Source: Thermoplasmatota archaeon (GTDB lineage: Archaea > Thermoplasmatota > JAKEGO01). Taken from it: a DNA stretch of 64,000 bases. Positions 12,001 through 51,935 of the stretch are shown here, in pieces (the stretch's first letter is position 1; every line of letters starts with the position of its first letter). Below the pieces are notes generated by a model. The model made no database searches, was not told the DNA's origin, and was given only the letters and a program-made list of their open reading frames with translations. Location of the stretch: the NCBI GenBank assembly GCA_028279595.1, contig JANQNK010000006.1, positions 96,001 through 160,000 on the forward strand, written 5' to 3'. The translations under genes were made by a program, and so were the position numbers.

Positions 12001-12407
12001 AGGACGTCACCATCGAGGCCGCGACCACCGAGGACATAATCGTGGTCTTCGAGTACGAGTCCGACGCGACCTGGGTGCCGATCGACTACGTGGCTGTCTC
12101 GCACGAGGACATCGGTCCCGGAGACACCGTCGTGGTGGCAGCCCACACCTTCAGGGTGCCGGGCGGATTCGAGGCCGGAGACGATGTGACCATGAGGGCG
12201 AGGATCCTCTACAACGGCGACGAGTACAGGCCGGTGGACGAGTTCGACGAGGAGATCCATCCGAACATCGACGAGGCGAGCCACGAGGTCGTCGGAAGGA
12301 AGCAAGGTTCGACAGGCTTCATGCCAGGCGTCGCAGCGCTGACAATGGCCGCGATCACGATCGCAGCCGTGGTCTACCTCTACAGGAAGAGGGAAGAAGA
12401 GCTGTGA
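3..12407 (+). CDS. Giant repetitive cell-surface (glyco)protein with Ig-like repeats and C-terminal membrane anchor; 5'-truncated by the window edge
   Basis: Frame open from nt 3 (WHNGSWGSGW-M...), >4130 aa, very D/T/S-rich and K-poor, many N-x-S/T sequons. ~110-aa repeats are joined by DxTAP linkers. C-terminus is GFMPG + hydrophobic helix + RKR. Confidence 0.9.
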   Translation, partial: WHNGSWGSGWMTYSGNFSLSEWGMYIIEWYSYDELGNIDWVFDYNNQTYYVDDSAPGTTIALGTPNYYDGADYWVNDTTTIGFTIDDGTGVGLNATWYRIWYGSDPWSSWTNHTAAGDFMLGLGDGMYHIEFFSTDLIGNNESSTNFTVYVDSVAPSISISDITEQRYDFGNGTRVPSIYLYTPGTATVYYGDDMTAEQLFYINGTASDANSGFQEVTYSTLLGDTPATDTSSPWSATYGAEATDADGTITITAYDNLDQMTQVTVTVTQDTTDPTITDGDWSESSTFLWVDLTNDTTDNSIAYNTNGMTGTYIGTLALDINDDVQLDRGQYSVAVGWIGAPWQFFSGVSTTTNVQYQFNSGDTWNATISVFIYDKVNNYQGQTGVYAIYRDTFDPRVRVTSISESSIYLHSPDTSTLVFGDGMGSEQSFTINGVASDPFSGLANVSFSSYAGDSPSDTAVSPWAAVYGVDNADVAGVINITAYDNMGNTKMINVTTIRDTDAPSISSVLITDLTLGSTTYVADGDDIQVTATITDANQAYMTTSDITADLWMFGGGNGVNPDWYNPTTGEAHWNLSSVTCSVSDGLNTVWVNATDIVAHTATMGSDDITADNSNPIIAVTSITEWPGSAYLYSPDLANIYFGDDMGSEQDFWINGTVSDGGSGIKAITFSSLLGESPANQTSTPWAVMYGAESTDVGGTITITVIDNTDNTAQVTVTVTQDATNPSFDDGDWSDASSNLYVDLTDDTSDNMIYYSQLMAGTDSGTLTFAVSDNVELYELVYDTGVGDDGDDLLSGASATPTVVYGFDSADTFSSTLTMVLTDAVGNSVTDSTTWEIVLDTTAPATAITAITETSPYLWAPDLATLYFGDDMASAQSFDIDGTAVDASSGLDTVTYSTLLGDSPGADTTSPWSATYDATFTDTGGTISITATDMVGNNVVLSVTVTQDTTAPSIDDGDWSESSLYLWVNTTDDTTDNTIYYGDDMTGTEIGTLTLDLSDAIGLQNITYMWGVGHDGNETLTGTSDTISVDYDFESTDTWTGTLTITSWDMVDNVVTDVLTWDIMRDVTAPVVSNVVILDLNYTNPNWTADDRSVQVTATVTGADYMGGGMIQANLTGLGGAVDAAPDNYWFGNNTAIWYVDPTTCDPSNGNVTIDVHAWDYVYNYHMDNDTIRSDNTGPQISSVLITDITDFATDFTSDGHQMLVEVTIVDAFVDQIPVTSITADLTDLGGNVSDNPNTWLPGLGYASWAFSPSLCTPSDGIVTVWVNVTDAANNTADQANDTIRSDNSAPTISSVYIYDQTNGRDDYVKDGDDVQITATITDTWMSFMDTSMIEANLSEIGYGWHVAPDFYNTVTGMTYWNITNVNVTDATSTVTVDARDFIFNFATQQSDDIIGDVTAPTIEMVVITDTTLGLTNYSTDGDDVQITVYVNDTNQADITTSMITADLTGFSLGAAVNPDGYGTGSGMAYWNLTSVSYLAEGTVTVDVDAADPAGNAGTQASGSIIADNTAPTIGSPSITDTTISSTMFVKNGDNAMILAWINDTNMLNITADTTGLDFFGTQWDTPTWRNAVTGKTIWNITGTTCNPSDADITVTWRVYDQAMHLTTVTDTITADNTGPSIAAVYIYDQTLGRDDYAKTGDDIQVTAYVNDTWQAYITASDITADLAGLGGGLFTNPDYYDTVSGLCIWNITPATVTPGIVTVSVDALDDVGNAGAQQTDTIIGDNTAPTIQAVTITDTTLMQTNFTTDGNDIQITAYINDTYQFDITTSMITADLTGFSLGAAVNPDGYGTGSGMAYWNLTAVTCSPSDGTINVDVDAVDPAGNAGTQSSGSIVADNTAVTIEMLEATDTTQSTTLYIVNGENVAVFAYVNETNLMNVTADMTGFGGGMWDAPDFHNTGTGVAWWNITGVSLSPSDGVITVTVTAYDQVYAMTVDTDTIIADNTGPTIEAVTITNNNTGSTQFVTQGINVTVTAFINDTNQVSITTSEITADLTNLGGVLFQNPDMYNTGTGVATWYVNNIATLPFEGLVTITVDAEDFMGSTGIQASGTTTADNGPPSINWTAIEDQTLSSMTWTKDGDTMRLNVTVFDGSLSFMTTADIWADLTVWGLAANTTADTFNNVTGDAEWVFSSVASTPADGVVTTWVYCRDIGGNFANATWVNITADNTDPSISGELITDETSSRTDFITDGDDVSVYAMISDLNFLNTTADMTGFGGGMWDTPTFRNAGTGVTWWNISGISATPTDGMIYVNISAYDSVLNLVVVMETIMVDTTAPVIASVLITDTTVPHTTYVKDGDDVQVTATITDMFQSYMDTSLISADLTGFGLGAAVAPDYYDTMTGMTYWNLTSVTCTPSDGTITVAVDADDFNDNSATQMSDDIVADNTPPVITSVLITDTTISSTSWVVDGHDVQVTANILPTDNLTVTADLTELGGGAAVAPSYYDLGTGDAYWNMTSVTCTPSDGVITVTVDAADFVGHTDSDTDTITSDNTAPTLSITVGSPSFGTLPTYVTDATDFTLTAGDTGSGIATTEYYVDATPWNTYVGAFNVLTEGAHTIYYRTTDNAGWVTSGSLDIFVDLTAPSASGAWSETSIYLFVDVSGTLWFGDAMGGSAMFPVLSGTAADAGSGLASVTFSTEFGDTPTNSGTLAAWSTGGYGIDSTDTDTDSPAQVTITDNVGHTTVLDFAYAEDNTAPMIDDGDFVAGGGHLYVDTTDDTSDNTIYYGDDMTGSELGWLITAISDNIGLASMEFQTAVGHDGNHVFPTAPVGFSPWVNYSFENTDTFSGALNLSVTDVVGNNYYDATTWSIIRDTSAPTIWDGDWSESSSDLYVDTTSEFTDNTIMYGSSMTSTEYGTLTFGFEDNVQLAGATYTVAVGNDGDDTFSGTNVTETVVYGFDSTDTFTGFITVTVTDAVGNSLAVGSEWQITRDVTAPTINTGEWAGPDVGIYIDSGLDKMWFGDSMTSALRVWINGTATDTSAVERVEFTTEPNLASSPSTHWINGTGTVDWYGMYTVDQTSSATTEETATVTVYDIVGNYATANFTYQEDTEAPTYSGVMWVEGANPNAFPLPDSDYLFVDGVDTLWFSDEMPGIEYASIYAQVEDNFLIEKAAYSDEPNLADSPSDEFMYTNSTFLVASRYGFSDTSDDGDGEITVTLTDVVGNFVEFTMDYDWDPIAPQIHDMYWAESSSYLYIDGSDTLWFGDGMFPNVDFADMFGNVSDNVMLDYAEYSEEPTIARSPGDGQAPAIDEIFIFSYDREDIWTEYGFDSSSSNGDRHINVTVYDKVGNYAEGALWFERDVSAPVFANETWMEDSSYLWIDGDGDLWFGDDMMMEETGTVYGEITENAELFMIEFSSEGNLASSPTAIMTMGTTYTFMEDYGFDASSTIGDGMVVVTAYDQVNNTNFIVLDYGTDFRAPNLNNTEWEENNAFMHIDGSGTLWFSNAMQVSQIAYIEGEIWDNLAFGMVTFSDETGSFVEHYLPYMEGMTGEDEFDTEYEFNTTAIDTDSPVTVTLADAVNNTATATLTYSLDATAPMANITSMMNYDVLNDTHAAVTQDLAGWYWTISGVGFDAGSGIDTIELSIDGGAAVTATNGGGWATWSYDSLELNNSGWHSIEWTVIDRVGNAQMMTYEVYRPAVNSSGVWMWRLADGGILNLTTIAPYFLWMQVDLVLPTDYIWVAIERFFENPISNDPWNLTNFHFMTIEVDDNDLLVGANLEFYYTQQQLRNNNLTEDDLLGLGFFNETSGEWELYPDTGVHDFVPYRRIPGRTQIHEYQGYLWADMIPHFSLISGLGQSYKVELLGNTTQTADIFDDVNDEGADFWVEYTIVVSNEGTENDDFRLSATGPLGWKLFLDGDRDPQGWDDHETDTTIENLGWGESIEWTLTAHIYDTDLNVDSWPLSGDTAEPGRTYYIDIEVESLTDPGTSYDSMVIDAVIRRPDLGVNLVTSTNPGAWILTNAEIDLYAFVHNYGNWTTSASYDGYIDPWVWDEDESRWLEDVTIEAATTEDIIVVFEYESDATWVPIDYVAVSHEDIGPGDTVVVAAHTFRVPGGFEAGDDVTMRARILYNGDEYRPVDEFDEEIHPNIDEASHEVVGRKQGSTGFMPGVAALTMAAITIAAVVYLYRKREEEL
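3210..7490 (+). repeat. 13 tandem ~110-aa coding repeats (ITDxT...DGDDVQVTA...ITADLTGxGxG...PDxY...G.AYWNLT.VTC.PSDG)
   Basis: Motif recurs every ~330 nt; one more isolated copy starts near nt 1510; triplet super-periodicity of ~987 nt. Confidence 0.85.
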
Positions 12408-40388: not shown

Positions 40389-43025
40389 TCACTTCATGCT
40401 CTCGAGCTCGTCGAGTATGGGCTGGATGTGATGGGTGTCGCCCCTCTCCTTGAAGATCTTCTTCGCCTTGTTGAAGAACGTCTTCGCCTGCTTGTCCTGC
40501 CCCATGTCCCTGTGGACGCGGCCTATGAGGAATAGCTTCTCGGCTATCCTTATCGGGGCGTTCCCCTTCTCCGCAAGCTCGAGGCTCTTGTTGAGGTACT
40601 CCAATGCATCCTCGTGATTCCCCTTGCTGGCATGGACGATCCCGTAGGCCATGTTGAGGTGTCCCATGAGAATGTGGTCCATGTCCGATCCGTGGATCCT
40701 CTCGGCCTCCTGGAGCCTCTCCAGGGCGTCGTCGTGCTTCTCCATCTCCGCAAGCGCCCTTACGGAGTTCATCAATGCGAACCCGAGGAGTTCGTGGGAA
40801 CCGCTCCTGCGTCCGGATTCGACGGCCATCTCCCAGTAGTGGTGGGCCTTCTCGATGTCCCCCTTGGAGAAATGGCACTCGCCCATGAGGTCGTAGACAC
40901 GACCGAGCTTGAAGACGTCCTTTCTCCCCTCGAAGAAGTCCAGGCTGACCTTCGCCAGTTCGAGGGCCTTGTCCATGTCGCCCATCGAGATGTAGATGGA
41001 CCCCATGTCGATCAGAAGGTCGTGATACTCGATGTCATGGGTCCCTTCCACGGCGTACTGGATCGCGAGTTCGAGGAGCTCCTTGGCCTTGCCGTGCTCC
41101 CCCTTGTGGATGAACAGCCTGGCAATTGCGCCGTTGACCATGGCCAACAGCCCCTTGTCCTTGGACTGGTTCGCCATGTCGAGAGCGATCTGAAGGTTGT
41201 TGTTGGCGTCGTCGACGTTCCCGAGGCTGAGTTCGAGCAACCCGAGCTGTCTGAATGCATGCGAGCGGGCCACGAAGTTCGTCGTGGATGACGAGTTCAG
41301 CGCCTTGTCGTAGTACTCCCTGGCGTTCTCGTGATCGGTCTCGAGGAAGTACATGTCCCCCTGGAGAATGTATATCTTGTAGAACTGGTCGGTCGGGATA
41401 TTGCCCTCGAGGTCCGTCAGTATGCTCTTGACCTCCGCGATGAGGCCGCGGTTCAGGGACTCGTTCCCGACCTTTCCGAGGATCTCGCTGGCGTCGTCGT
41501 AGTACTCGCCCTTGAGCAGATACCTTATCCCCTTCAGCGAGTCGAAGACCGTCTCCTTGCCGATGAAGTAGTCCGCTGCGTTCTTGCAGTGTTCCTTTAT
41601 CTCGGCCTCGGAGAGCCTAGAGTAGGTCACCTCGCGAAGGAGGTTCTGGAGATAGATCATGCCCGACGGCAGGTCCTGGATCAGGTGGAGGTCGATGAGG
41701 CGGTCGAGCGCCTCCATTGGTGGGTCGATGTAGAGCAGAGCGTCGATCTCGTTGGGATATGTGAGGACCGACGCGTAGTTGAGCAGTTTCCTCTCCTCCT
41801 CCTCGAGGCCGGAAAGCAGTTCGTCCTGGACGAACCGGTAAAGGTCGCTGGGCTTTTTCACGTCGTCGGGGTTCCTTATCAGTTCGAGGGACAGGGGATG
41901 CCCGCCCGTGATCTTGTAAAGGATATCGATGTTCGGTCCGGAGAACCCGCGCGAGCTGAGCATCTCCTCGGTGCCCTCGAAGCTCAGTCCCGACAGCTTC
42001 AGCTCCCCCACGTGGGAACGTATGTTGACGTCCCTCCTGTCGTAGAACTCGGGGGTTGTCCTGGATACGACGACCATCTTGAGGTCCTTGCCCGAAAGGG
42101 CCTCGAACATCTGTCCGAAGAAGCCGGCAAGCTCATCGTTCGCCTTCTCGTAGTTGTCGAAGACGAAGAGCGATGGCACGTCGCCGAGGTTCTCGCCGAT
42201 GAGTTCGATCGCCTCGTTGGTCTGGAACGATGACCTCGAGATCATCTTCTTGAGCTCCCTTGAAGCGTTTAGCGAGAAGAACTCGGCAAGCCTCGAAAGG
42301 ATGCTCCTGATGGTGTCCCATTCCGTGACGTTGCACCACAGTACGCTGTAGTCGCTGGTGAACTCGTCGATTACCTTGGCCAATAGAGTGGACTTCCCGA
42401 TCCCGGTTATCCCCGTGATGACGAGGACCTTCCTCTCGGATATGATCTTCCTCACGGACTCGAGTTCGCGGTCTCGTCCGATGAAGTTGCGTGGCTTTGG
42501 GGCATCGCTCAGCATGTGGACGCGCGTTGACATCTCCTTGTCCTCGGAGATGAACTTCTCGAGAGCCTCCATCTGAACGACATCCTTCCCGTCGTTCGCT
42601 ACCACAAGGACGGTCAATGGGGAGACACCGCCTCCCAGTCTCTCTACGAGGGTGAAAATGGGGACGTCCTCGACCTCGTCGCCGGTCCTTATCTTGATCT
42701 CCACGGCTTCGAGCTTCTCCTTGATGTCCTTCGCCTCGTCGATACCCTTCATGGTGAGGAAATAGATGTTGACCCGTCTCATGTGGCCTTCGACCATTCC
42801 CGTACGGACCTGAATGAGTTCGTCGTTGACGAGTCCCTTGAGCGAACGGGGGACGTGGTTCCAACGGATGCCCACGGCGTCCGCTATGCCCTTCTGGGAC
42901 AGGTCGTGGGGAAGAACTCCGAATATCTCGGTCTGCGACTCGTCTGAGACGTACCTTTCCGCAGGAAACTCGGAAAGATGGAGCAGTATCTTCTCCTTTA
43001 CCGTAAGCAAGCTCTTCTCCGTCAT
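40389..43025 (-). CDS. wHTH - STAND-class NTPase - TPR signalling/regulatory protein
   Basis: N-terminal wHTH (SQKGIADAVGI..NHV.R.LK.L), FIGRDREL, Walker A GITGIGKS, Walker B FVFDNYE, GGHPL.L, C-terminal TPRs. Confidence 0.85.
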   Translation of the reverse strand: MTEKSLLTVKEKILLHLSEFPAERYVSDESQTEIFGVLPHDLSQKGIADAVGIRWNHVPRSLKGLVNDELIQVRTGMVEGHMRRVNIYFLTMKGIDEAKDIKEKLEAVEIKIRTGDEVEDVPIFTLVERLGGGVSPLTVLVVANDGKDVVQMEALEKFISEDKEMSTRVHMLSDAPKPRNFIGRDRELESVRKIISERKVLVITGITGIGKSTLLAKVIDEFTSDYSVLWCNVTEWDTIRSILSRLAEFFSLNASRELKKMISRSSFQTNEAIELIGENLGDVPSLFVFDNYEKANDELAGFFGQMFEALSGKDLKMVVVSRTTPEFYDRRDVNIRSHVGELKLSGLSFEGTEEMLSSRGFSGPNIDILYKITGGHPLSLELIRNPDDVKKPSDLYRFVQDELLSGLEEEERKLLNYASVLTYPNEIDALLYIDPPMEALDRLIDLHLIQDLPSGMIYLQNLLREVTYSRLSEAEIKEHCKNAADYFIGKETVFDSLKGIRYLLKGEYYDDASEILGKVGNESLNRGLIAEVKSILTDLEGNIPTDQFYKIYILQGDMYFLETDHENAREYYDKALNSSSTTNFVARSHAFRQLGLLELSLGNVDDANNNLQIALDMANQSKDKGLLAMVNGAIARLFIHKGEHGKAKELLELAIQYAVEGTHDIEYHDLLIDMGSIYISMGDMDKALELAKVSLDFFEGRKDVFKLGRVYDLMGECHFSKGDIEKAHHYWEMAVESGRRSGSHELLGFALMNSVRALAEMEKHDDALERLQEAERIHGSDMDHILMGHLNMAYGIVHASKGNHEDALEYLNKSLELAEKGNAPIRIAEKLFLIGRVHRDMGQDKQAKTFFNKAKKIFKERGDTHHIQPILDELESMK

Positions 43026-43143: not shown

Positions 43144-43881
43144 TCAATCAAGGGGCCTGTACTTGACGGTCGGTGTACCGTCTGTCTTCTCATTGCCGTC
43201 GAGGGGAATGACCACGGCCTCCTGGGCCTGTTCCTCGAACGGGACCTGCTCTGCCTGTATGACGTTCTGGTCCGCTCCCGGGGGATGTACGACCGGGCCG
43301 CCGGCCTGATATTCTTCCGCCGGACGGTCCTCCCTCGGTGGTTCGTTGCCCGGTTGCGATTCCATGAATGTGGGGGAATGGCCTTGCTGCTGGGGCTGCG
43401 GGGAAACAACTGCCGGCTGCGGCTGCTGGACCGCCTGCTGGGGCGGTTGCGGTGCGACCTGCTGTTGTGGCGCCGGCGGTCGGGGCTGCTGGGTCGGTGC
43501 AGGCTGAACCGGCTGGGGTGGTTGTGGGGTCCCCCTCCTAAGTTCGAGCGCCTCCGCCTTCAATCCCTCGACCTGTATCTTCAATTCGTCGATGTTGTCG
43601 TGGAGATTGGCGATGATCTCGACGTCCCGGACGTGCCTGTCCTTGAGCCGGGCGATCTCCTCGTCACGCTCCCTGATCTGCTTGGTGATGACCTCCTGTT
43701 GGGCGCCCGCCTTGGCAGCATCGATCCCGCCTCCAGTCCTGAGCCTCTCTATCTCGGCCTCCTTGGCTGCCAGTATGTCCTTGAGCTTCGCCAGTTGAGA
43801 ATGGATATCAGGACGCTTCGGCGGTCCAGCGCTCTTCTCGGTGAGCGAGCGCATCTCCTCTTCTTCAACGATCCTGATCAT
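43144..43881 (-). CDS. Coiled-coil protein with Pro/Gln-rich tail
   Basis: Start MIRIVEEEEM after GGTGA; heptad region, then PQQP-rich linker. Confidence 0.75.
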   Translation of the reverse strand: MIRIVEEEEMRSLTEKSAGPPKRPDIHSQLAKLKDILAAKEAEIERLRTGGGIDAAKAGAQQEVITKQIRERDEEIARLKDRHVRDVEIIANLHDNIDELKIQVEGLKAEALELRRGTPQPPQPVQPAPTQQPRPPAPQQQVAPQPPQQAVQQPQPAVVSPQPQQQGHSPTFMESQPGNEPPREDRPAEEYQAGGPVVHPPGADQNVIQAEQVPFEEQAQEAVVIPLDGNEKTDGTPTVKYRPLD

Positions 43882-43894
43882 GTCCTGATCACCG

Positions 43895-44713
43895 TCAGAC
43901 CTTTCCGGCGCCCCTGCAGTTGGGACATACCTCTTGGACGATGCTTCCGTCCTTCTTCCTAACGCCGATGACACCCTCTCCTCCGCAGACGGGGCAGATG
44001 GCCTGTTCCCCGATGTCCTCGGGTATGGGTATCGTCTCGGGTACCTCGGCGACCTCCGCCGGGATCGGAGCCTCCTCCTGCGGTTCTGGGGCGGCTTCCG
44101 CGCCCTTTACCGTTTCCACCGTCTGGGCCTTCTCATCCTGTTGCTTGGCACCCAGGATAGATCCTGATCCTTCGGGCTTTCCACCGAGGAGTCTACCGCG
44201 CGACTCGGGTTGTGCCGGTGCAGCCTCCTCGACCGGAGCGAAGACCGGGGTCGGTCCCGCCTGGGGCTTCTTCATCGTGTCGCTCATCTGATGGAGCTCT
44301 CCGGTAAGATCGGATATCCGCTGTTCGAGCTCCTCCTTGTAAGCTGTGGTCTTGTCGAGGATCTCCTTGTCGAGCTCGATCTTCTTGTCCCTCTCCGTGA
44401 TCAGTGCTTTGAGGTCCTGTATCTCGCCCTTGAGCGTCTCCAGGATGCCAGGGTCGGTCTCTGCGGCCGGTGGGCCGTCCTTGGGAGCTGGAGCCTTGGC
44501 CTTCTCCTGCTCGAGCGCGGCCTTCGTCGCGTCGAGCTCCTCCTGGAGCTTGGTGTTCTCGTCCTTCATCGTCTTGAGCTCCTGGATCGCCTTGTTGAGC
44601 TTCTCCTTGAGGTTCTCTACGATGTCGGTGATCTGCTTCTTGAGCTTGAGTTGCTCAGACGTCTTCTCCTGCTTCGACCGCTCCATCTCGTCCTCGGTGA
44701 TCATCCTGACCAT
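43895..44713 (-). CDS. Coiled-coil protein with C-terminal DnaJ-type zinc hairpin
   Basis: MVRMITEDE...heptads...CPVCGGEG-x15-CPNCRGAG-KV*. Confidence 0.8.
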   Translation of the reverse strand: MVRMITEDEMERSKQEKTSEQLKLKKQITDIVENLKEKLNKAIQELKTMKDENTKLQEELDATKAALEQEKAKAPAPKDGPPAAETDPGILETLKGEIQDLKALITERDKKIELDKEILDKTTAYKEELEQRISDLTGELHQMSDTMKKPQAGPTPVFAPVEEAAPAQPESRGRLLGGKPEGSGSILGAKQQDEKAQTVETVKGAEAAPEPQEEAPIPAEVAEVPETIPIPEDIGEQAICPVCGGEGVIGVRKKDGSIVQEVCPNCRGAGKV

Positions 44714-44726
44714 TCCGACCCTCCAT

Positions 44727-45521
44727 TCATGTTCTCCCAGTTCCACCGCACCGCGGACATGAGACCTCCTTCTCGGCGTCCCCGTCCTGCACGATCACCT
44801 TCTTTCTCCCCTTGCAGAGGTCGCAGCGTTTCGACCTTCCAGCCAGGGGAGGCGCTAGGTTCAGCACTATTGTGTCGTTAGTGCCACTTTCCTTATTTAA
44901 ACTTTCCAACTGCTGCTTGGCCTTCCTGAGCTCTGCTACGATAGCGCTGGACTTCGTCTTGAGCTCATCGTATCTCGCAGTGTGCTTCTGACCATCCTTC
45001 CTGAGCTTCTCGTTCTCGACAGTCAGGTGCTTGATCCTCTCGATCGCAGCGGGGTCGGGCCCCGATTGGGTTGCCGTCGATGGCGACGCCCTCAACGACT
45101 CGACCTCCGCGAGCAGGTCCCGTCTGATCTGCTCGTACTGGGACTTGATGCCCTCGAACGAACGTATCTGCTGGTCCCTGTCGGTTATCATACGCTTGAG
45201 GATGTCGATCTCCTTCTCTTTCTCGGCGACGCTCTTCGTGATCGCCTGTATCCTCTTCTGCATCTCCCCTACCTTCTGCCTGAAGGATTCGGGTATCTCG
45301 CTCTGCGCCTTGGCCTGACGGATCCTCGTGACCGCCCATTTGAGCTCGTTCTGAAGCGTCTCCTTGGCCGCCGCGCTCTCCTCGAGGTCGGTCCTGAGCG
45401 AATTGATCTGATTGGTCAATGTATCGATGGTCCGAAGATGGATCTCCTCCTCCGCCTTGCCCTTGGCAATGAGCTGCTTGAGACTCTCGACCTGGGCTTT
45501 AAGCGGATCGGACCCTGTCAA
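44727..45521 (-). CDS. Coiled-coil protein with C-terminal DnaJ-type zinc hairpin
   Basis: Heptads...CDLCKGRK-x14-CPRCGGTG-RT*; TTGA overlap with the upstream gene. Confidence 0.8.
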   Translation of the reverse strand: MTGSDPLKAQVESLKQLIAKGKAEEEIHLRTIDTLTNQINSLRTDLEESAAAKETLQNELKWAVTRIRQAKAQSEIPESFRQKVGEMQKRIQAITKSVAEKEKEIDILKRMITDRDQQIRSFEGIKSQYEQIRRDLLAEVESLRASPSTATQSGPDPAAIERIKHLTVENEKLRKDGQKHTARYDELKTKSSAIVAELRKAKQQLESLNKESGTNDTIVLNLAPPLAGRSKRCDLCKGRKKVIVQDGDAEKEVSCPRCGGTGRT

Positions 45522-46975
45522 ACTATACCAGCTCCGTCACACCTAGGACACGTCTCCTCCCTGACGTGGCCGTGCCTGTCCTTGACCCCGACCTTCCCGA
45601 GGCCACCGCATACCGGACAGACCTTGCCCAATGTGTCGCTCACCGGCACCTCGGCCGGCGGAGGGGGCGGTGCGGCCGCCTTGGCCGGAGGTGCCGCCTG
45701 TGCCTCTGCCGGCGCTGCGGGAGGCGGTGGTGCCGCGGCCTTGGTCTCCAGCCTCTCGTTGAGCCTCTGTACGGCGGTCTCGAGGGCAGTGTTCCTTCCG
45801 TTAGCCTCGTCGAGCTCCTTCCTGGTCTTCTCGAGCTCGGCGTTGAGTCCGTCCCTCTCGGCCATGATCATCTTGACGTCGCCGCTCTCCGCGGCGATCT
45901 TCGCGTTCTCTGCCTCCAGGTCCGCGATCCTCTTGTTGAGGCCCTCCCGTTCGGTCTTCCAGGAGGCTTCCTTCTCGGTGAGGGTAGCCTTGACGGCCTC
46001 CATCTGCTCCGACTCTCCGGCCTTGTCGCCCTGGAGCTTGACGTATTCCTGCTTGACGGCCGCGATGGTGTCCTTGACCTCCGTGAGGTCCTTCTTCAGC
46101 TTGGCGTTCTCCTCCTTGAGCTTGACGACCTCAGCGGAACCGGCCTTCTCGAGTTCAGCGATCCTCATGTCCCGCATCTGCACCTCCTTGTTGAGGCGCT
46201 CGATCTCGCGGGTAAGGCCCTGTACCTTGTCCGTGGAACCCGAGCTCTGCTTGACGATCTTGGCGTTCTCGGCCGTGAGCCTCTCGACCTCCCGGGTCAG
46301 GGCGTCCGCCTTCTCCTTGACTGCGGCCGAATCCTTCTGGACCTTCTCGTTCTCGGCGGCGGATATCTCCGCGGCCTCCTTCATGGATGCCAGCGAGGCC
46401 TCGGCGGTCTCGATCCTCTTCGTGAGCTCCGCCCTCTCCTTCTCGACGACCCCGATCGCGGTCTTCATCTCCTCGATCTCGTCGTTCTTCGTCCTCAGGG
46501 AGGTCGTGACCTTCTCCAGCCTCTCCTTGTCAGCGGTCCTGTCCTTGTCGGCCTTCTCGAGGGCCTTCCTGGCGGCCTCGAGACCGGCCAGCGCCTTCTT
46601 CGCTTCCTCGAGCTCGGCAGCTGCCTTTCCTGCCTTCTCGAGGTCCTTCTGGAGCTGATCGTTGGTGGCCTTGAGCCCCTTCAGGGTCTCCTTGGCCGCA
46701 CCGACCGTCTTCTTCATCTCCTCCCTCTCCTTGTCGAGGGAGTCCACCTGTTTCGTAAGGTCTGCGATCCGCTTCTCGGAGGCTGCGGTATCCTTCTTGG
46801 CCGCATCGGCGTCGGCGGTCATCTGTTCCACGACCACTTTTAGGCGCGATATCTCACGCGCCCTTTCCTCGATCTTCCTCTCTGATTCGGATATCCTCTC
46901 CTTCAGTTGGAGGTTCTCAGACTTCTTCTCCTCGTCGAAAAGGTCCTTCTCGTCCTCGGATATCACCTTGATCAT
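45518..46975 (-). CDS. Long coiled-coil protein with C-terminal DnaJ-type zinc hairpin
   Basis: MIKVISEDE...~400 aa of heptads, Pro/Ala linker, CPVCGGLG-x15-CPRCDGAG-IV*. Confidence 0.82.
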   Translation of the reverse strand: MIKVISEDEKDLFDEEKKSENLQLKERISESERKIEERAREISRLKVVVEQMTADADAAKKDTAASEKRIADLTKQVDSLDKEREEMKKTVGAAKETLKGLKATNDQLQKDLEKAGKAAAELEEAKKALAGLEAARKALEKADKDRTADKERLEKVTTSLRTKNDEIEEMKTAIGVVEKERAELTKRIETAEASLASMKEAAEISAAENEKVQKDSAAVKEKADALTREVERLTAENAKIVKQSSGSTDKVQGLTREIERLNKEVQMRDMRIAELEKAGSAEVVKLKEENAKLKKDLTEVKDTIAAVKQEYVKLQGDKAGESEQMEAVKATLTEKEASWKTEREGLNKRIADLEAENAKIAAESGDVKMIMAERDGLNAELEKTRKELDEANGRNTALETAVQRLNERLETKAAAPPPPAAPAEAQAAPPAKAAAPPPPPAEVPVSDTLGKVCPVCGGLGKVGVKDRHGHVREETCPRCDGAGIV

Positions 46976-48123
46976 ATCTTACCCGCTCCTTTGCATCTCG
47001 GACACATCTGTTCGTTCAGTTTTCCGCGTTTGCCCCTCACCATCACGCGTCCCTTGCCCGAGCAAACCGGACAATCCTTCTTCCCCTTCTTCGAGCGCTT
47101 TCCACCCTTCTTCTTGACGGGCTTCCTGGGGGAACTATCCACCTTTGGAGGTCCCGGAGGTTGTACGTCGGGTTCCTCGGGCTCTTCTTCCTCGGCACCC
47201 TCGAGTATCCCCTTGACGTTGACCTCGTTGTGACACCATGGACAGATGGCCTTTTGAACCTTCCTGTCCACGATGAACGTACCGTGGCAGTAGGGGCACT
47301 CCACCTCGGTATCGCTCCTCGTCCTGCGTTCTGGATTGAGAGTGAACTCCACGGTCCTGGACGCATACGGCGGTATGTTCACATACGCCTCCGACGGCAC
47401 CGGAATGAACCCTTCCGGGGAGAATGGTTCTATGTGCAACGTCTCGAGGGACCGTTCCGACTCGTTCCTTATCTTGATCCGATAGACCAGGCCCTCACCC
47501 TTCTCGGTCAGGACCGTCGATATCGAGGCGTCCCTGCCCGGGACGAACTCCTCGGCGGTGTACGCATCGGTGTTCATCGGATTGAGCTCGAATATCCTCG
47601 CCTCTTCGCCGAAGGGCTTGAGGCTGATGACCTCGCTCTGCGGGGTCGGGACGAATATCGAGTTGGATGTGTCCGGAATGATGTTGATCCGGTTCAGGGG
47701 CTGCCCGAGGTTGTTTCGAACGAGGACCTTGTAGAGGATCCTGTTCTCGACCCGGGCGAAGACCGTCTTGATAGTGAGCTCGCGTCCGGGCTTCGGCTTG
47801 ACCATGGTCGCTGCCACGGCGCGTTCCGCCAGGGAGATGCACTCCTCGAACTGGTTCTCCTTGAGGGCGCGCTTGGCCTTCGTCAACAGGTCCTTCGCGC
47901 TGTTGACATCGATGCGTGCGTCCTGTGCCTTCAGGATCGAGCGTTCGGCGAATTCGACGGCACCCTTGGCGCTGTGCGCCATGCTCAGCTGTTCACGGAC
48001 CATGTTCTCGGCCTTCTCGGAGAGTCCCCGTGCCCTTTTCGGCTTTTCCTGGTCAAGGGCCAGTCTCGCCTTAGCGAGGACCTCCTCAGCCTCCGAGGTG
48101 TCGATATCGATCCTTTCGTCCAT
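46972..48123 (-). CDS. Helical + two beta-sandwich domains + zinc ribbon + C-terminal DnaJ-type zinc hairpin
   Basis: Duplicated Y[KR]...RN.....L..[IL].I.P...F.P.P...F.LNP units; CPYC..CPWC; CPVCSGKG-x15-CPRCKGAG-KI*. Confidence 0.78.
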   Translation of the reverse strand: MDERIDIDTSEAEEVLAKARLALDQEKPKRARGLSEKAENMVREQLSMAHSAKGAVEFAERSILKAQDARIDVNSAKDLLTKAKRALKENQFEECISLAERAVAATMVKPKPGRELTIKTVFARVENRILYKVLVRNNLGQPLNRINIIPDTSNSIFVPTPQSEVISLKPFGEEARIFELNPMNTDAYTAEEFVPGRDASISTVLTEKGEGLVYRIKIRNESERSLETLHIEPFSPEGFIPVPSEAYVNIPPYASRTVEFTLNPERRTRSDTEVECPYCHGTFIVDRKVQKAICPWCHNEVNVKGILEGAEEEEPEEPDVQPPGPPKVDSSPRKPVKKKGGKRSKKGKKDCPVCSGKGRVMVRGKRGKLNEQMCPRCKGAGKI

Positions 48124-48124
48124 G

Positions 48125-51100
48125 TTACTCCTCCCCCTCTTTTACCGATTCTATGAACGCCTTGGCATGCATGTAGGCGCCCTTTGCCGTCTCCAGCATG
48201 GAGACGATGATGTATACGGCTATAAGACCGAGTATGAGTGCGATGAGCGGATAGATGAAGGTCGGGAACGGCAGCAGGTCAGGAGTGAGGAAAAGGCCTT
48301 CGAGCATGGTGCCGATCGATCTCCCCGAGGATAGGCTCAGGAAGAATATGCCGAACATCAGGCCGCATATGGCGAGCGTGCTGATGTATGACTTCGTTCT
48401 GATCCCGGTGATGATGGTGTAGAGCGGGACTATCATCACGAGCATTATGTACGCGAGCGGAAGGGCAGCCGCGTCGATCGCCGCGCTCTCGACCGGCAGG
48501 AGGACGAACAAGGAGATCGCCGTCGTCACGACCAGACCCTTGATGAGGTGCTCGTTCCGCCGCTGTTTGAGGCTCACGCGCTTCGCGTTCGCCCTTAGCA
48601 TCGCGAAACCACCGAGAAGTATGATCGGCAGTGCGATGAGGACGATCGGGTTGGGGCGTTTGCTGACCTTTATCTCCGTAGAAACGACGTTGTTCCTCCG
48701 CCGTCCCGGGTCACTCCCCTCATAGCCTTCGCTGGCCGCCTTGATCGTCAACGTGTGTCGCTCCGAACGGTTGAACCAGTCGAGCTCCGGGATCTCGATC
48801 TCGATTGCGAGGGTCCTCTCCCCCTCCATGGGAAGGTCGATCTGGACCTCGTGGATGAGGTCTCCGTCCCAGTAGACCTCGATCGGCAGGTTCGAGAGGG
48901 TGTCGATGACCGGGTCCCCCGTCTCCCTGCCGGTGGACCTAACGGTGAACGTTACGGTGAGCTCGTCCCCCTCCTGTGCGATGTCATCGATGTCCACGTC
49001 CGAGATGGATATGTCTGGCGAGAGCGTGATTATCAGGAAGTTGAGCTCCTCGGGCGTCGGCAGTGCGTCGACCCAGACGTTCACGGTGAAGTCGAGTTCG
49101 GAGAAATGGGGTATCGAGGGTGCGGAATGTATCGTCGCATAGATGATCCGGTCCTGACCGGGAGCCAGCAGGAAACTGGAGTTGTCGAGCTCGATCTCCC
49201 AACCGGAATAGAAGGTCGTGGAGTTGAGCGTGAACGTCCGCTGTACGGGGAACTCGTTCCTGATGAGGATGCCGTAGTCGATCTCGGAATCCGGGAATAT
49301 GTAGACGAACGGAGGTCCGTAGGGCATGACGAACGAGGTCTCGACCTCGATGCGTACGTCGTCGTATCCCGGACCCTCGACCACCGAACCGGACACGTCT
49401 ACGTAGTTGATCGGGTCGTTGAGGGAGTTGGACGGCGGCCTGATCGTAACGTAGACCGTAGTGCTCTCGTCGAAATCGAGGGTGACCGATGGTCTGTCGA
49501 GCCACACGGTCCAATCGCCGGTCTGAGAGACGTCGAGTGTGACGTTCTCTCGGCCGTTGCCGGTGTTTATTACGTAGACAGGGACGATCAGAGGTTCGTT
49601 GGGTATTACCTTCCACACGTCGCTCCCGCCCCAGATGTCCAGGTCCCGTGTCTGGAGGTCGACACCCGTGACGAGGTCGACGATGACCTTCCCCCATTCG
49701 GAGTCGGACACCTTGCTGTCGTGCTTCGATGTGAGGTTCAGGATGATGGTATCGCTGCTGTCCGCGATGAGTCCGTACGGGATGTACACCCTGATCTGGA
49801 GTATTCGGGTCTCTCCGGGATCGACGAGGTCCAGGGCCTCGGGATTGATCATGTCGGTCTCCCAATCTGAGGTCGACACGATGTCCTCGTTGTAATTGTC
49901 TATCCCGTTCCCAGTATTGTTGAATGTGAAGTTGAGGACAGTCTCCCCTCCAGGGGGCCCCCTCGCCGTCATCACAGGGCGTATCTCGACCCCTCCGACC
50001 TGGGTCAGCGATATCGTGCATGTGGAAAAGTCGCTCTTGGTCGGGTCCGCAGTGGAGTTGACCTCGACGACGATGATGTAGACCTCGTCCTCGAGCGCGT
50101 CCTCCGGTATCTGTACCCTCAGGGTGATCGTCGTTGTCAGACCTGCTAGCACCGAACCGGTGATATCCCCCGGTAACAGGGAGATCGAAAGGCTCTGATT
50201 GTTCACTGTCCTCAGGCCGAAGGAGTCCTCGCCATTGCCCGTGTTGGTCACGATGAGCTCCATATCGACAGTGTCGCCCGGTTCCGCGGTGGTAGCGTTC
50301 TCCTCGGGTTCGATGGTAACGGAATAGCCCTGAAGGACGTTTATGTACGAGAAGGCGCTATCGCTCGTGGTCCCATCACCACAGGTGGCGGTGAGGACAA
50401 GGGTCTCGTTCGTTCCGACGGGAGTTCCTGGATTGATGGTGACGTTCACGATGATATCCACATTCTCGTCGTATTCGAGGTTCACCAGCGGCTGTGAATC
50501 GACGACGAAGGTCAGATTGGTCGATCCGTCGATCGAGAACGAGTCCATGTCGTTCCCCTGGTTGCGGATGTTGAACGTGAACTGGACAGCTTCCATCGGT
50601 TCCCCGGACTGGATAACTGGATCGATCGCGGTGACCTCGACACCGTAGACCTGGGGGATCATCGCCACGAGGTCGACCACCCGGTACTTCGAGCTGTCGG
50701 CGTCGGACTCGGCCCGGACAGTGATGTGGGCCCGCCTGTTGTCCGGCCTGTCCCTCGATTCCATCGTAATCGTTATTATCTCAGATTCGCCATTATCAAG
50801 TGTAATGCCGTCCGGAGGTGCTCCATTCTCAACATTTACCAGCCAGTTTGGGGGCGCTGTTGAGTTGGTAATGTAGAACGTGTCAGTACTCTCGTAGTTC
50901 GCCACGTTGGTCACGTTGACGAGGAATACCGCGGTCTCTCCTATCCCGATCTCGACGGGAGATTCGCTGATGAGCCTGATGTCGACGTCATTGGATTCGG
51001 AGACGTCGATGGAGGCCTGGGATGACGCGTCGACGTAGATGTCATAGTCGGATGTCACCTGGATACGCAGCGTTGCGGTGGTGTCGGCGGCTATGACGTT

Positions 51101-51736
51101 GTTCCACTCGGATCGCGGCACGATGACGTCCACGCTGACGGAGATGGAGTCACCCATGTCGAGGTCCTCTATCTTGTCGTCGAACGTGACGTTCCAGACC
51201 CTGTACTGGGTGTCGATGCAAAGGGCCTCGACTGTGAAGTTGTCCATGGCATTCCCGGTGTTCCACACGGTGAAGTTGATGGTGATGGTCTCGCCGGGAT
51301 CGCCGAAGAACGTGCCTGGAGTGTTGATAGCTACTCCGGCCACGGGAAAGACCCTGGTCGTGGCCTGGGCCGTGTCGGTGGCGCTCGACGCCTGGGATAT
51401 AGCCTGGAGGGTGACGTAGTCGACGGTGTTGGCCTGTGTCCCTGCCGGGATGGAGACGATGACCTCGATATCTTCCTCGATCTGGCCGGATGATAGTGTG
51501 ATGTTCGATGGCTGGACCACAGTCCAACCCCGGGAGGAGTTCGCCACGAGATCGTAGGAATCGGTTTGGCTACCAGTGTTCTCCACATCGAAGTGATGGG
51601 TGATGTTCGCGCCTGGAAATCCCCATCCGCCACCTCCATCCGGTCCCCGTACATCGACGTCGTACTGCGCCGCCCCGGGACCGCAGAGGAACAGTGCGAA
51701 GAAAACGACGCACAAGAACAACCAATGCAGCCTCAT
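48125..51736 (-). CDS. Surface protein with ~8 NEW3/COG1470-like Ig repeats, a CARDB-like domain and a 5-TM C-terminal membrane domain
   Basis: Signal peptide; repeated V.NTGN..D.F.L...W; five hydrophobic segments in the last ~170 aa. Confidence 0.82.
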
Positions 51737-51935
51737 ACCTTCACCTTTTCGCGATACGCCTGGACTCCAAGTTATTCAATTCTGTCTATATATAGTTTGT
51801 TTGGTGGTATTTTCCGCGTTCCGTGACAAATCGAGAATCACCAGCGTCCGGTGGTTTCCGTGGTTTATTGGTCACGTTCGTATCCCAATCACTATCTTTT
51901 TATCCGGCCGGGGCCTTCTGCGGAACGGTGATCCA

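Follow-up and report, generated by a model that had tools for sequence, protein, structure and literature searches.

A conserved operon in a lineage of Thermoplasmatota encodes four proteins ending in a predicted one-zinc DnaJ-like hairpin

We describe a conserved operon, found in a 64,000-nucleotide window of a Thermoplasmatota archaeon (contig JANQNK010000006.1, positions 96,001 to 160,000), that encodes a giant Ig-repeat membrane protein (gene 1), a putative adaptor (A) and the coiled-coil proteins B to E. A, B, C and D all end in the same small cysteine-rich tail. The tail is a self-contained finger of CPxCG type, predicted to hold one zinc, on a disordered linker. The operon is new, whereas the tail module itself is already widespread.

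The operon and its proteins

The features of the operon and its neighbour are as follows, in window coordinates.

51787..51794, minus strand: TATA-like box, candidate operon promoter some 58 nt before the ATG of gene 1, read from the sequence upstream of 51736
48125..51736, minus strand: gene 1, surface protein of 1203 residues with a signal peptide and about 10 Ig/CARDB-like repeats
46972..48123, minus strand: gene A, putative cytoplasmic adaptor of 383 residues
46975..47073, minus strand: tail of A, predicted one-zinc hairpin, net charge +8
45518..46975, minus strand: gene B, 485 residues, start overlapping the stop of A (ATGA)
45521..45619, minus strand: tail of B, predicted one-zinc hairpin, 67-94% identity in orthologues against 34-42% for the body
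44727..45521, minus strand: gene C, 264 residues, with a TTG start that overlaps the stop of B
44730..44825, minus strand: tail of C, predicted one-zinc hairpin, first knuckle CDLCKGRK with its last Gly replaced
43895..44713, minus strand: gene D, 272 residues from MVRMITEDE
43898..43996, minus strand: tail of D, predicted one-zinc hairpin
43144..43881, minus strand: gene E, 245 residues from MIRIVEEEE
40389..43025, minus strand: STAND ATPase with TPR repeats (by Pfam), 878 residues, a neighbour outside the conserved core

The genes overlap or are separated by gaps of 1-14 nt (1 nt between gene 1 and A), and each has a Shine-Dalgarno-like motif ahead of it. The probable start of D is 44713, at MVRMITEDE, rather than the upstream GTG. 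The initial annotation had given the range 43895-47075, which begins at the stop of D and reaches as far as the first Cys in the tail of A; the whole genes span 43895-48123.

Gene 1 has Pfam matches to Ig_VWA7, FixG_C and CARDB, and by eye its translation shows about five hydrophobic helices in the C-terminal part followed by a short cytoplasmic end helix. A opens with helical repeats (10-106), which are followed by two sandwiches of Ig/PapD/MSP-like type (117-264) and a zinc ribbon (276-298); a disordered linker rich in Lys (309-347) then leads to the tail. The ribbon, CPYC...CPWC, is separate from the tail and of another type. The AlphaFold2 model of A has a pLDDT of 71, and Foldseek matched it to tandem Ig folds. 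B begins with a head motif, MIKVISEDEK, continues into a coiled coil of about 400 residues and reaches its tail through a Pro/Ala-rich linker. C consists of a coiled coil, a basic linker and the tail, with no head motif. D combines a head motif, two long helices (7-73 and 88-148) and the tail, which is reached through a disordered, acidic and Pro-rich linker (151-235) that includes a conserved R.RLL.G peptide. E has a head motif, a coiled coil and a Pro/Gln-rich end with no zinc finger. The N-terminal, acidic head common to B, D and E reads M-I/V-K/R-h-I-x-E/D-E/D-E/D.

The gene order is constant wherever the contigs reach, with all six genes in locus L017 and the last five in L002, and partial operons in the same order occur in L001, L003, L004 and L077. 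The operon was found only in a GTDB class of three species. A profile of the head motif matched only G000 and G002 among the 401 genomes of the phylum.

Four tails at the extreme C-terminus

The products of the minus-strand open reading frames bear out the shared C-terminal motif of four consecutive proteins exactly as the initial annotation had read it. A ends in CPVCSGKG-x15-CPRCKGAG-KI, B in CPVCGGLG-x15-CPRCDGAG-IV, C in CDLCKGRK-x14-CPRCGGTG-RT and D in CPVCGGEG-x15-CPNCRGAG-KV, each directly followed by the stop codon. The common pattern is CxxCxGx[G/K]-x14/15-CxxCxGxG plus two residues. We scanned all six frames of the whole 2.29-Mb genome with this pattern as a regular expression and obtained six matches, namely the tails of A to D, each exactly two residues from the stop, and two internal ones. 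The internal matches belong to canonical DnaJ-like genes, 186 and 200 residues before the stop, and one of them adjoins a DnaK gene, as expected for a canonical DnaJ. With four of six genome-wide matches at a stop codon, a chance origin of the pattern is excluded, and the strictly C-terminal position held for all four operon matches. The further claim of exactly two residues after the last Gly applies to A-D but fails in the C-type orthologue of genome G002, which ends at the last Gly. A Gly-x-hydrophobic ending is also frequent among unrelated stand-alone fingers, and the two terminal residues therefore look structural rather than a special C-terminal signal.

The tails are kept in orthologues: in all seven further assemblies that were recovered, no other part of each protein is as well conserved. 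Tail and body identities relative to genome G002 are 67 and 34% for B, 64 and 36% for D, 48 and 35% for A, and 42 and 26% for C. Four cysteines are conserved in each tail. The initial annotation had also offered a redox or zinc switch. On such a reading, oxidation would cause these cysteines to lose zinc or pair as disulfides, which would alter the assembly. Plant DnaJ-like zinc-finger proteins are reported to have disulfide isomerase activity, but the operon contains no thioredoxin-like or other redox gene and nothing in our data favours a redox reading, which we regard as very improbable.

Tail charge varies, from +8 for A in the window's genome to +1 in G002, where the tails of B and D are acidic, and a simple electrostatic docking rule thus fails. 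This variation also bears on a nucleic-acid tether, in which hairpins and basic linkers would bind DNA or RNA and the coiled coils would act as SMC-like or partition-like organisers. The Lys/Arg-rich linkers before the tails of A and C, the charge of the A tail, and weak NCBIfam matches of B-D to SMC, ASRP and Rad50 would be consistent with such a role. However, these matches lie far below the cut-offs and cover coiled-coil segments only, no ATPase head is present, in G002 neither B nor D has a basic tail, both being neutral or acidic, and the operon begins with a surface membrane protein. We consider a nucleic-acid tether quite improbable.

Relation to DnaJ and other one-zinc domains

The best solved match to the tail profile was E. 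coli DnaJ (PDB 1exk, residues 27-61, E 2e-8), covering repeats 2 and 3, the central hairpin that we take to be zinc centre II; anti-TRAP came second. The match to 1exk supports homology of the tails to the central half of DnaJ_CXXCXGXG, as judged from the sequence profile. With Pfam PF00684 itself, the tails of A-D scored 17.6-23.4 bits, below the gathering cut-off of 32.7, and do not qualify as members of that family; of the 65 model positions, the alignment spanned 15/16-53 for B-D and 6-53 for A. Tails and DnaJ share two CxxCxGxG knuckles 14-15 residues apart, a beta-hairpin and an h-x-h...G...h-x-E/Q-E/Q pattern. DnaJ, however, has four knuckles and two zinc ions between its J-domain/G-F region and beta-sandwich domains, whereas the tails correspond to the two central knuckles only and sit at the extreme C-terminus of coiled-coil or Ig-domain proteins. 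The proposal that two repeats represent the one-zinc half of the DnaJ cysteine-rich domain was supported.

The four proteins are not class A (type I) J-proteins. They have no N-terminal J-domain with an HPD motif, each tail has two rather than four CxxCxGxG repeats with two zinc centres, and the chains stop two residues past the second knuckle with no flanking C-terminal beta-sandwich domains. The J-domain family PF00226 had no match at E <=0.1 in A, C and D and none in B among the best 25 of 32 families, and neither the G/F region nor the DnaJ C-terminal domain was found by Pfam in A-D. The absence of a J-domain claimed earlier is consistent with N-termini made of helical repeats or coiled coils and with Pfam results in which PF00684 appears below threshold only. 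These results weigh against a chaperone-type role, in which the tails would hold unfolded clients or engage DnaK and so recruit Hsp70 to a coiled-coil assembly. The central zinc hairpin of DnaJ, the closest solved relative of the tails, has a role in handing substrates to DnaK, and the genome does encode DnaK with an adjoining DnaJ. But the J-domain, G/F region and C-terminal domain are all absent from A-D, and most carriers of the module also have no J-domain. We see only a slim chance for this role.

AlphaFold2 placed two short strands in the spacer (359-363/369-373 in A, 248-252/258-260 in D), in agreement with the beta-hairpin proposed from the letters. The pLDDT was 60-80 in the hairpins and below 50 in the linkers (A 309-347, D 151-235), both models being built on only 4-5 sequences. 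Each tail can be pictured as a self-folding beta-hairpin of about 33 residues that would hold one zinc ion on four cysteines, that is, the central DnaJ hairpin of repeats 2 and 3 used alone as a C-terminal knob on a flexible linker. By homology, from DnaJ, anti-TRAP and the cysimiditides, we infer that the tails bind zinc (PMC2896485; 10.1101/2024.10.02.616296).

Three other one-zinc systems resemble the tails. Anti-TRAP (RtpA) of Bacillus (PDB 2bx9/3lcz) likewise has a one-zinc domain with two CxxCxGxG motifs outside a J-protein, but it is a free protein of 53 residues with a short knuckle spacer and a C-terminal trimer-forming helix. The tails lack a helix after the finger, and their scores against the anti-TRAP family, 15.1 bits against a cut-off of 32 in Pfam (PF15777) and 18.6-21 against 65 in NCBIfam (NF058604), exclude membership. 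The archaeal small CPxCG-related zinc-finger proteins form one zinc site from two CPxCG knuckles, and the tails read CPVCGG, CPRCDG and CPNCRG. In Haloferax volcanii, 49 such proteins have been reported, and their roles concern regulation, motility, biofilm and cell division (10.64898/2026.07.16.738847; PMC2253796). They are mostly free and small, whereas in the present operon four large proteins carry the finger as their C-terminal module. The cysimiditide RiPP precursors have two CXXCXGXG motifs with a spacer of 14-22 residues and one zinc, also outside a J-protein (10.1101/2024.10.02.616296). They differ in being short peptides of actinobacteria that a dedicated methyltransferase modifies; this operon has no gene for such an enzyme.

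A worldwide search of a protein library with the tail profile (E <=1e-3) recovered 680 proteins. The best 150 matches were mainly tiny stand-alone proteins and tandem arrays. Among the 152 sequences examined, comprising these 150 and earlier orthologues, HPD was found in four, 46 had just two knuckles, many were 37-50 residues long, and in 43 the finger lay within five residues of the C-terminus. The profile did not match canonical DnaJ only, since hundreds of non-J proteins were recovered. Portability of the module is borne out by its attachment through disordered linkers to unrelated N-terminal architectures, a helical bundle with two Ig-like sandwiches and a zinc ribbon in A as opposed to coiled coils in B-D, and by free proteins of 37-50 residues elsewhere. 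The tails belong to an unnamed module, which may be stand-alone, arrayed or C-terminal, of two CxxCxGxG knuckles 13-16 residues apart with a beta-hairpin spacer and no J-domain; it would bind one zinc ion. Being widespread, it is not a new domain type. The tails of A-D are no closer to one another than to unrelated stand-alone fingers, and common descent within the operon therefore cannot be shown.

Homologues in archaellum loci

Homologues of A residues 4-265 were found in 80 of 401 Thermoplasmatota genomes, and in other families of the phylum the profile gave E-values as low as 3e-52. In 22 of the 24 loci fetched from such families, the A-like gene lies directly before arlB-arlC/D/E-arlF/G-arlH-arlI-arlJ, and in the four loci with upstream ORFs read it directly follows a giant Ig-repeat membrane-protein gene. 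A shares with its homologues the N-terminal helical repeats, the two beta-sandwich domains (4-265) and the CPxC...CPWC ribbon that is often present, as read in L040-L043, and also a gene position immediately after the gene of a giant multi-pass membrane protein with Ig/CARDB repeats, likewise seen in L017 and L040-L043. The A-like proteins correspond to no Pfam family and were not named in any source, and A-like genes are absent from large archaellated families of the phylum.

In the genome studied here, A is not upstream of arlB; B-E follow it instead of arl genes, and the arl operon is on a different contig (C4:135346-142046), where no A-like gene adjoins it. The resemblance to arl operons concerns the homologues of the first two genes at their head and, as with ArlC/D/E and ArlX, the encoding of coiled-coil-containing cytoplasmic proteins together with a membrane machine. 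However, C-E have no FlaC_arch or Arch_fla_DE match at E <=0.1 and B has none among the best 25 of 32 families, and the genome's own ArlC/D/E gene is located elsewhere.

A possible membrane-anchored scaffold

The most likely reading, to which we give somewhat less than even chances, is that the tails are docking knobs assembling a membrane-anchored scaffold, perhaps linked to the motility organelle. The operon supplies four tailed proteins together with a giant surface protein of five membrane helices and a fifth coiled-coil protein. Adaptor A would sit against the membrane protein from the cytoplasm. Through their zinc knobs, A, B, C and D could make protein-protein contacts, docking on a shared partner or on one another, and the long coiled coils would thereby be tied into a scaffold under the cell surface. 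Docking, partner, membrane anchoring through A and the motility link are all putative. Because gene 1 and A are homologous to the pair heading the archaellum operon elsewhere, the scaffold may be connected with a motility organelle or its anchoring, a link suggested by the homologues and not by this operon. Of the portable C-terminal docking or targeting tag of the initial annotation, the portability and the C-terminal position are supported, and docking on one receptor is a candidate role. Neither the wide occurrence of the module nor the archaellum-gene homology of the first two operon genes had been anticipated.

Two rival modes of assembly can be considered. The acidic heads of B, D and E might bind the zinc hairpins, joining the proteins end to end in gene order. 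DnaJ apart, the genome has head and tail motifs in this operon only, conservation in B is 70-80% for the head and 34-42% for the body, and three heads (B, D, E) face four tails (A-D), E being head-only and A tail-only. Yet C is tailed without a head, the variable tail charge means that acid-base pairing is not general, and in the AlphaFold2 model of full-length D residues 1-6 form coil and the head does not pair as a strand with the hairpin, although this test is a weak one, made in cis and with only four sequences. We hold this head-to-tail chain to be unlikely. The hairpins might otherwise bind each other, homo- or heterotypically, bundling the coiled-coil ends without a separate receptor. 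In anti-TRAP dodecamers, adjacent one-zinc domains make trimer-trimer contacts (PMC2896485), and the operon supplies four tails, each of which keeps its own loop sequence in every orthologue. But free single fingers are widespread and nothing known of them points to oligomers, which leaves such tail-to-tail nodes with a low probability.

A broader extension of the docking scaffold, which we advance as a speculation with little chance of being correct in full, would be an archaeal membrane skeleton not described before. It would consist of the surface giant, A and a coiled-coil lattice whose assembly is coded by hairpin tails and acidic heads; it might have evolved from accessory genes of the archaellum operon and might still organise or anchor the motility organelle. 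If so, it would be a candidate molecular counterpart of the archaellar polar cap or stator anchor, structures of unknown composition.

A known anti-phage defence system could be set aside: PADLOC returned only low-scoring coiled-coil matches to LmuB and JetC, and generic P-loop/TPR matches for the STAND neighbour. The STAND ATPase gene is adjacent to the operon in L002, and its best homologue in G002 lies on another contig beside unrelated genes.

A six-gene operon with private terminal motifs

The operon comprises six minus-strand genes, gene 1 and A to E, and is followed by a gene for a STAND protein:

48125-51736 (-): gene 1, 1203 residues
46972-48123 (-): A, 383 residues
45518-46975 (-): B, 485 residues
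44727-45521 (-): C, 264 residues
43895-44746 as listed (-): D, 272 residues from MVRMITEDE at 44713, which is almost certainly its true start
43144-43881 (-): E, 245 residues from MIRIVEEEE
40389-43025 (-): STAND NTPase with TPR repeats, 878 residues, 118 nt downstream of E

Within the operon, neighboring genes either overlap or are separated by 1-14 nt; a Shine-Dalgarno-like motif precedes each of them, and a TATA-like box is found about 58 nt upstream of gene 1. Besides a signal peptide and about ten Ig/CARDB-like repeats, the gene 1 protein shows five hydrophobic helices on inspection; its basic loops and the 22-residue helix at its end would lie on the cytoplasmic side. In A, four helices (residues 10-106) are combined with two Ig-like sandwiches (117-264), similar to PapD/MSP/ASH folds, and with a CPYC...CPWC ribbon. 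Foldseek with the model of A retrieved generic tandem Ig folds only (PapD-like chaperones, transglutaminase barrels and ciliary ASH/MSP proteins). The remaining products, B to E, are coiled coils. A role of the tails of A-D in nucleic-acid binding is possible but little supported, as there is no ATPase head and the SMC-like matches are confined to the coiled-coil segments; a redox role is likewise conceivable but has little in its favor, since no redox gene accompanies them.

The endings of A-D are as the initial annotation described them, with two CxxCxGxG knuckles separated by spacers of 15, 15, 14 and 15 residues and followed by two residues and the stop codon; the first knuckle of C reads CDLCKGRK. 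A six-frame regular-expression scan of the whole genome (2.29 Mb, 21 contigs), in which the window occupies C11:96001-160000, gave six matches, four of which are the tails of A-D, each two residues before the stop, and the remaining two are located 186 and 200 residues before a stop, one adjoining a DnaK gene. The tail pattern is thus real, far beyond chance and private to the A-D gene cluster. The two residues after the last Gly, noted as a constant feature, held for A-D in the window and failed once, in C of the sister genome G002, which stops at the Gly. Because of this exception and because a Gly-x-hydrophobic ending is common among unrelated free fingers, we read the two residues as the probable end of the fold and not as a recognition signal. 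In the C-type tail (44730-44825, minus strand), the first knuckle is degenerate (C..CKGRK), its last Gly being substituted; the same variant occurs in an unrelated free finger protein of 50 residues (P0034) and in P0019.

A second motif, M-[IV]-[KR]-h-[IV]-x-[EDA]-[ED]-[ED], is common to the N-termini, or heads, of B, D and E. It was found nowhere else in the genome, and its profile matched only this genome and G002 among 401 genomes of the phylum. In the linker of D (about 44140-44200, minus strand), the peptide R-x-R-L-L-x-G...G-x-S-x-L is conserved in all four orthologues, the rest of the linker being variable and disordered, and an RRLLG-like sequence is also present near the head of E in G002; this peptide may be a short linear binding motif.

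The tail corresponds to the central hairpin of the DnaJ zinc domain

All four tails matched the DnaJ cysteine-rich domain of Pfam (PF00684) below threshold, with 17.6-23.4 bits against a cut-off of 32.7, mostly at model positions 15/16-53 of 65, which is the central part. A profile built from twelve tails (alignment A2) was run against all PDB sequences, and the best match was the cysteine-rich domain of E. coli DnaJ (1exk, residues 27-61, E 2e-8), a stretch leading from repeat 2 to repeat 3. In DnaJ, this hairpin forms zinc centre II. The second match was anti-TRAP, which was ruled out on comparison. AlphaFold2 models of A and D placed two short strands within the spacer (pLDDT about 60-80), in agreement with the beta-hairpin proposed for it, and the 40-85 residues preceding the tail were disordered (pLDDT below 50). 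Together, the PF00684 and 1exk matches, the predicted strands and the disordered linker identify the tail as a one-zinc CPxCG-type finger that is equivalent to the central DnaJ zinc hairpin and tethered by a flexible linker; from homology, we infer that it binds zinc. The Pfam search found no J-domain in A-D, so that the initial description of DnaJ-type knuckles without a J-domain was borne out. The tail-bearing proteins lack three defining features of the DnaJ family, and the tail is therefore not a DnaJ. A chaperone function could still be imagined for it, with little support, and the missing J-domain argues against it.

The tails are more conserved than the proteins that carry them

Seven further assemblies contain the operon or parts of it, with identical gene order wherever the contigs reach far enough: two JGI metagenome contigs (L001 and L002, 87% identity), a Logan contig (L003), an NCBI assembly (L004), the record 'MAG: Thermoplasmata archaeon isolate PMV_4.75' (L020, G001), genome G002 with all six genes (L017) and an ENA contig with B-C-D (L077). 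Across these orthologues, each paralogue keeps its own tail sequence nearly constant while the remainder of the protein drifts. Tail identity to G002 exceeded that of the body in B (67 versus 34%), D (64 versus 36%), A (48 versus 35%) and C (42 versus 26%), and the tail of B was 88-94% identical to those of L003 and L004 against 40-42% for the body. The suspicion that the tails might not be conserved in orthologues can thus be dismissed. Only three species genomes make up the GTDB class of the window, each with tails of this type. No RNA dataset was listed as a holder of the sequence; the sole holder was a coral-metagenome DNA run, which may be the source of the assembly.

The STAND-TPR protein, in which 170 N-terminal residues precede the ATPase domain, was considered as a receptor of the tails. 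As a part of the core it was rejected, because the G002 homologue lies on another contig beside unrelated genes; the gene is syntenic with the operon only in the closest relative, and three G002 paralogues are found elsewhere.

A widespread hairpin module

The tail profile gave 680 matches (E up to 1e-3) among 1.84 billion representative proteins. We inspected 152 sequences, namely the best 150 of the 680 together with earlier orthologues, and found exactly two knuckles in 46 and a finger at most five residues from the C-terminus in 43. Many were free proteins of 37-50 residues, others were arrays of up to 16 knuckles, and only four had an HPD near the N-terminus, so that the profile reaches well beyond canonical DnaJ proteins. 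Their source names are 'hypothetical', 'DnaJ-class molecular chaperone' or a misassignment, and no curated Pfam or NCBIfam family catches the hairpin above threshold. The tail belongs to a one-zinc hairpin module that is widespread but has no name; neither is this type of domain new, nor is the module unique to the operon. Cysimiditide precursors have the same motif with one zinc and a spacer of 14-22 residues (10.1101/2024.10.02.616296), and archaea encode many small CPxCG zinc-finger proteins (PMC2253796; 10.64898/2026.07.16.738847). A search of the ESM Atlas with the tail of D retrieved small viral (phage) hypothetical proteins and DUF5351 with scores of 0.87-0.90, which we regard as a lead only.

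Outside the GTDB class of the window, 38 further genomes of the phylum matched the profile, all of them weakly (best E 1e-7), and full two-knuckle pairs there belonged to canonical DnaJ genes or to one large multi-knuckle protein. On a domain too short to resolve descent, a common origin of the four tails was unsupported, their mutual loop identities (9-39%) being no higher than those to unrelated free fingers (up to 45%).

On contig C121 of G002, a free 91-residue protein (L018:3770-4045, minus strand; profile E 1e-6) carries the same hairpin, with further cysteines before it and 13 residues after it; no counterpart was found in the window's genome. P0046 (L076, JGI 3300046692) has 200 residues, an N-terminal coiled coil and four C-terminal knuckles; dozens of small orphan genes without Pfam matches surround it on an 876-kb contig, which could itself be a virus or mobile element of very large size, and no operon like A-E was found on that contig.

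Relatives of A in archaellum operons

Beyond what the initial annotation covered, a profile of A was run against 401 Thermoplasmatota genomes, and homologues of residues 4-265, covering the helices and both sandwiches, were detected in 80 of them (E down to 3e-52); we call these proteins A-like. They fall into no Pfam family and are unnamed in every source, and word-indexed searches gave only three orthologues for A and, for the A-like profile, 11 relatives without a name. We fetched 24 loci (L040-L063) from G019, G021, G145, G173 and 18 other Thermoplasmatota genomes. In 22 of them, from several families, the A-like gene has the same orientation as the archaellum (arl) operon and immediately precedes its arlB; the operon further includes an ArlC-ArlD/E fusion (above the cut-offs for PF05377 and PF04659), arlF/G, arlH, arlI and arlJ. 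The A-like gene directly follows a gene for a giant Ig-repeat membrane protein, of the type of gene 1, in all four loci where the upstream ORFs were read, with an overlap of 4 nt in L043. According to the match tables, ArlD/E is also present in about 30 of the approximately 32 genomes with strong A-like matches. A-like genes are missing from the large archaellated families f14, f34 and f26 or show up there only as scattered weak matches, so the A-like gene is a lineage-specific accessory. The giant/A-like pair looks like undescribed accessory genes of the archaellum locus, and we found no mention in the literature consulted of such a pair heading archaellum operons in several Thermoplasmatota families.

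The A-like proteins of the archaellum loci lack the DnaJ-type tail and have acidic or Lys-rich ends. A carries a second, different zinc module, the ribbon CPYCHGTF-x11-CPWCH (residues 276-298; 47230-47298, minus strand), and the A-like protein of L040 has the same ribbon (CPKCKGPF...CPWCG), so the ribbon predates the tail. A complete arl operon without an adjoining A-like gene is present in the window's genome (C4:135346-142046), where A is the sole member of the family. This arrangement suggests that, in the window's class, the giant/A pair left the arl operon and joined B-E, and that A gained a tail of the B-D type.

A candidate membrane-anchored scaffold

What is new here is that four large, co-transcribed proteins share the hairpin at their C-termini, together with the six-gene operon as such and the origin of its first two genes in the archaellum locus. 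In our best reading, the fingers would be docking knobs that assemble A-D, through which the coiled coils would be gathered at the cytoplasmic face of the membrane protein. The result would be a scaffold anchored to the membrane, perhaps in the service of the motility organelle. We favor this reading because a tethered, autonomous and strongly conserved finger is found on four products of one operon, because three operon proteins have a second private motif, and because a membrane protein heads the operon and the adaptor has relatives whose genes accompany those of the archaellum motor. Possible binding partners of the tails are a common receptor, the other tails and the heads. Head-tail docking in cis was not supported, as the AlphaFold2 model of full-length D had no such pairing, a weak negative, and a simple electrostatic docking rule fails because the tail charge is not conserved.

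As free micro-proteins, arrays and C-terminal knobs, the central zinc hairpin of DnaJ acts as a widely spread mini-module in its own right, which is useful for annotation and for understanding the evolution of the DnaJ zinc domain. With several long coiled-coil proteins, two private terminal motifs and an adjoining membrane anchor, the operon is a clean, self-contained case of what one would expect if a cytoskeletal lattice had an assembly code. Thermoplasmatota cell envelopes are unusual, and we know of no internal scaffolds in this phylum. The giant/A-like pair and the operon are concrete candidates for two open questions, how archaella are anchored without a regular S-layer and which cytoplasmic structures hold them (PMC12448462). 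Anchoring is open specifically for the S-layer-less Thermoplasmatales, and Oxyplasma meridianum reportedly showed no typical polar cap (PMC12448462).

Other origins of the operon were considered and rejected. PADLOC and PHROGs yielded coiled-coil noise only, which does not support a defence system or virus, and the hypervariable Ig-protein module of Thermococcales (PMC8416519) was unrelated on comparison. Elsewhere in the window, a single ORF of 4124 residues (33-12407, plus strand) encodes another giant protein.
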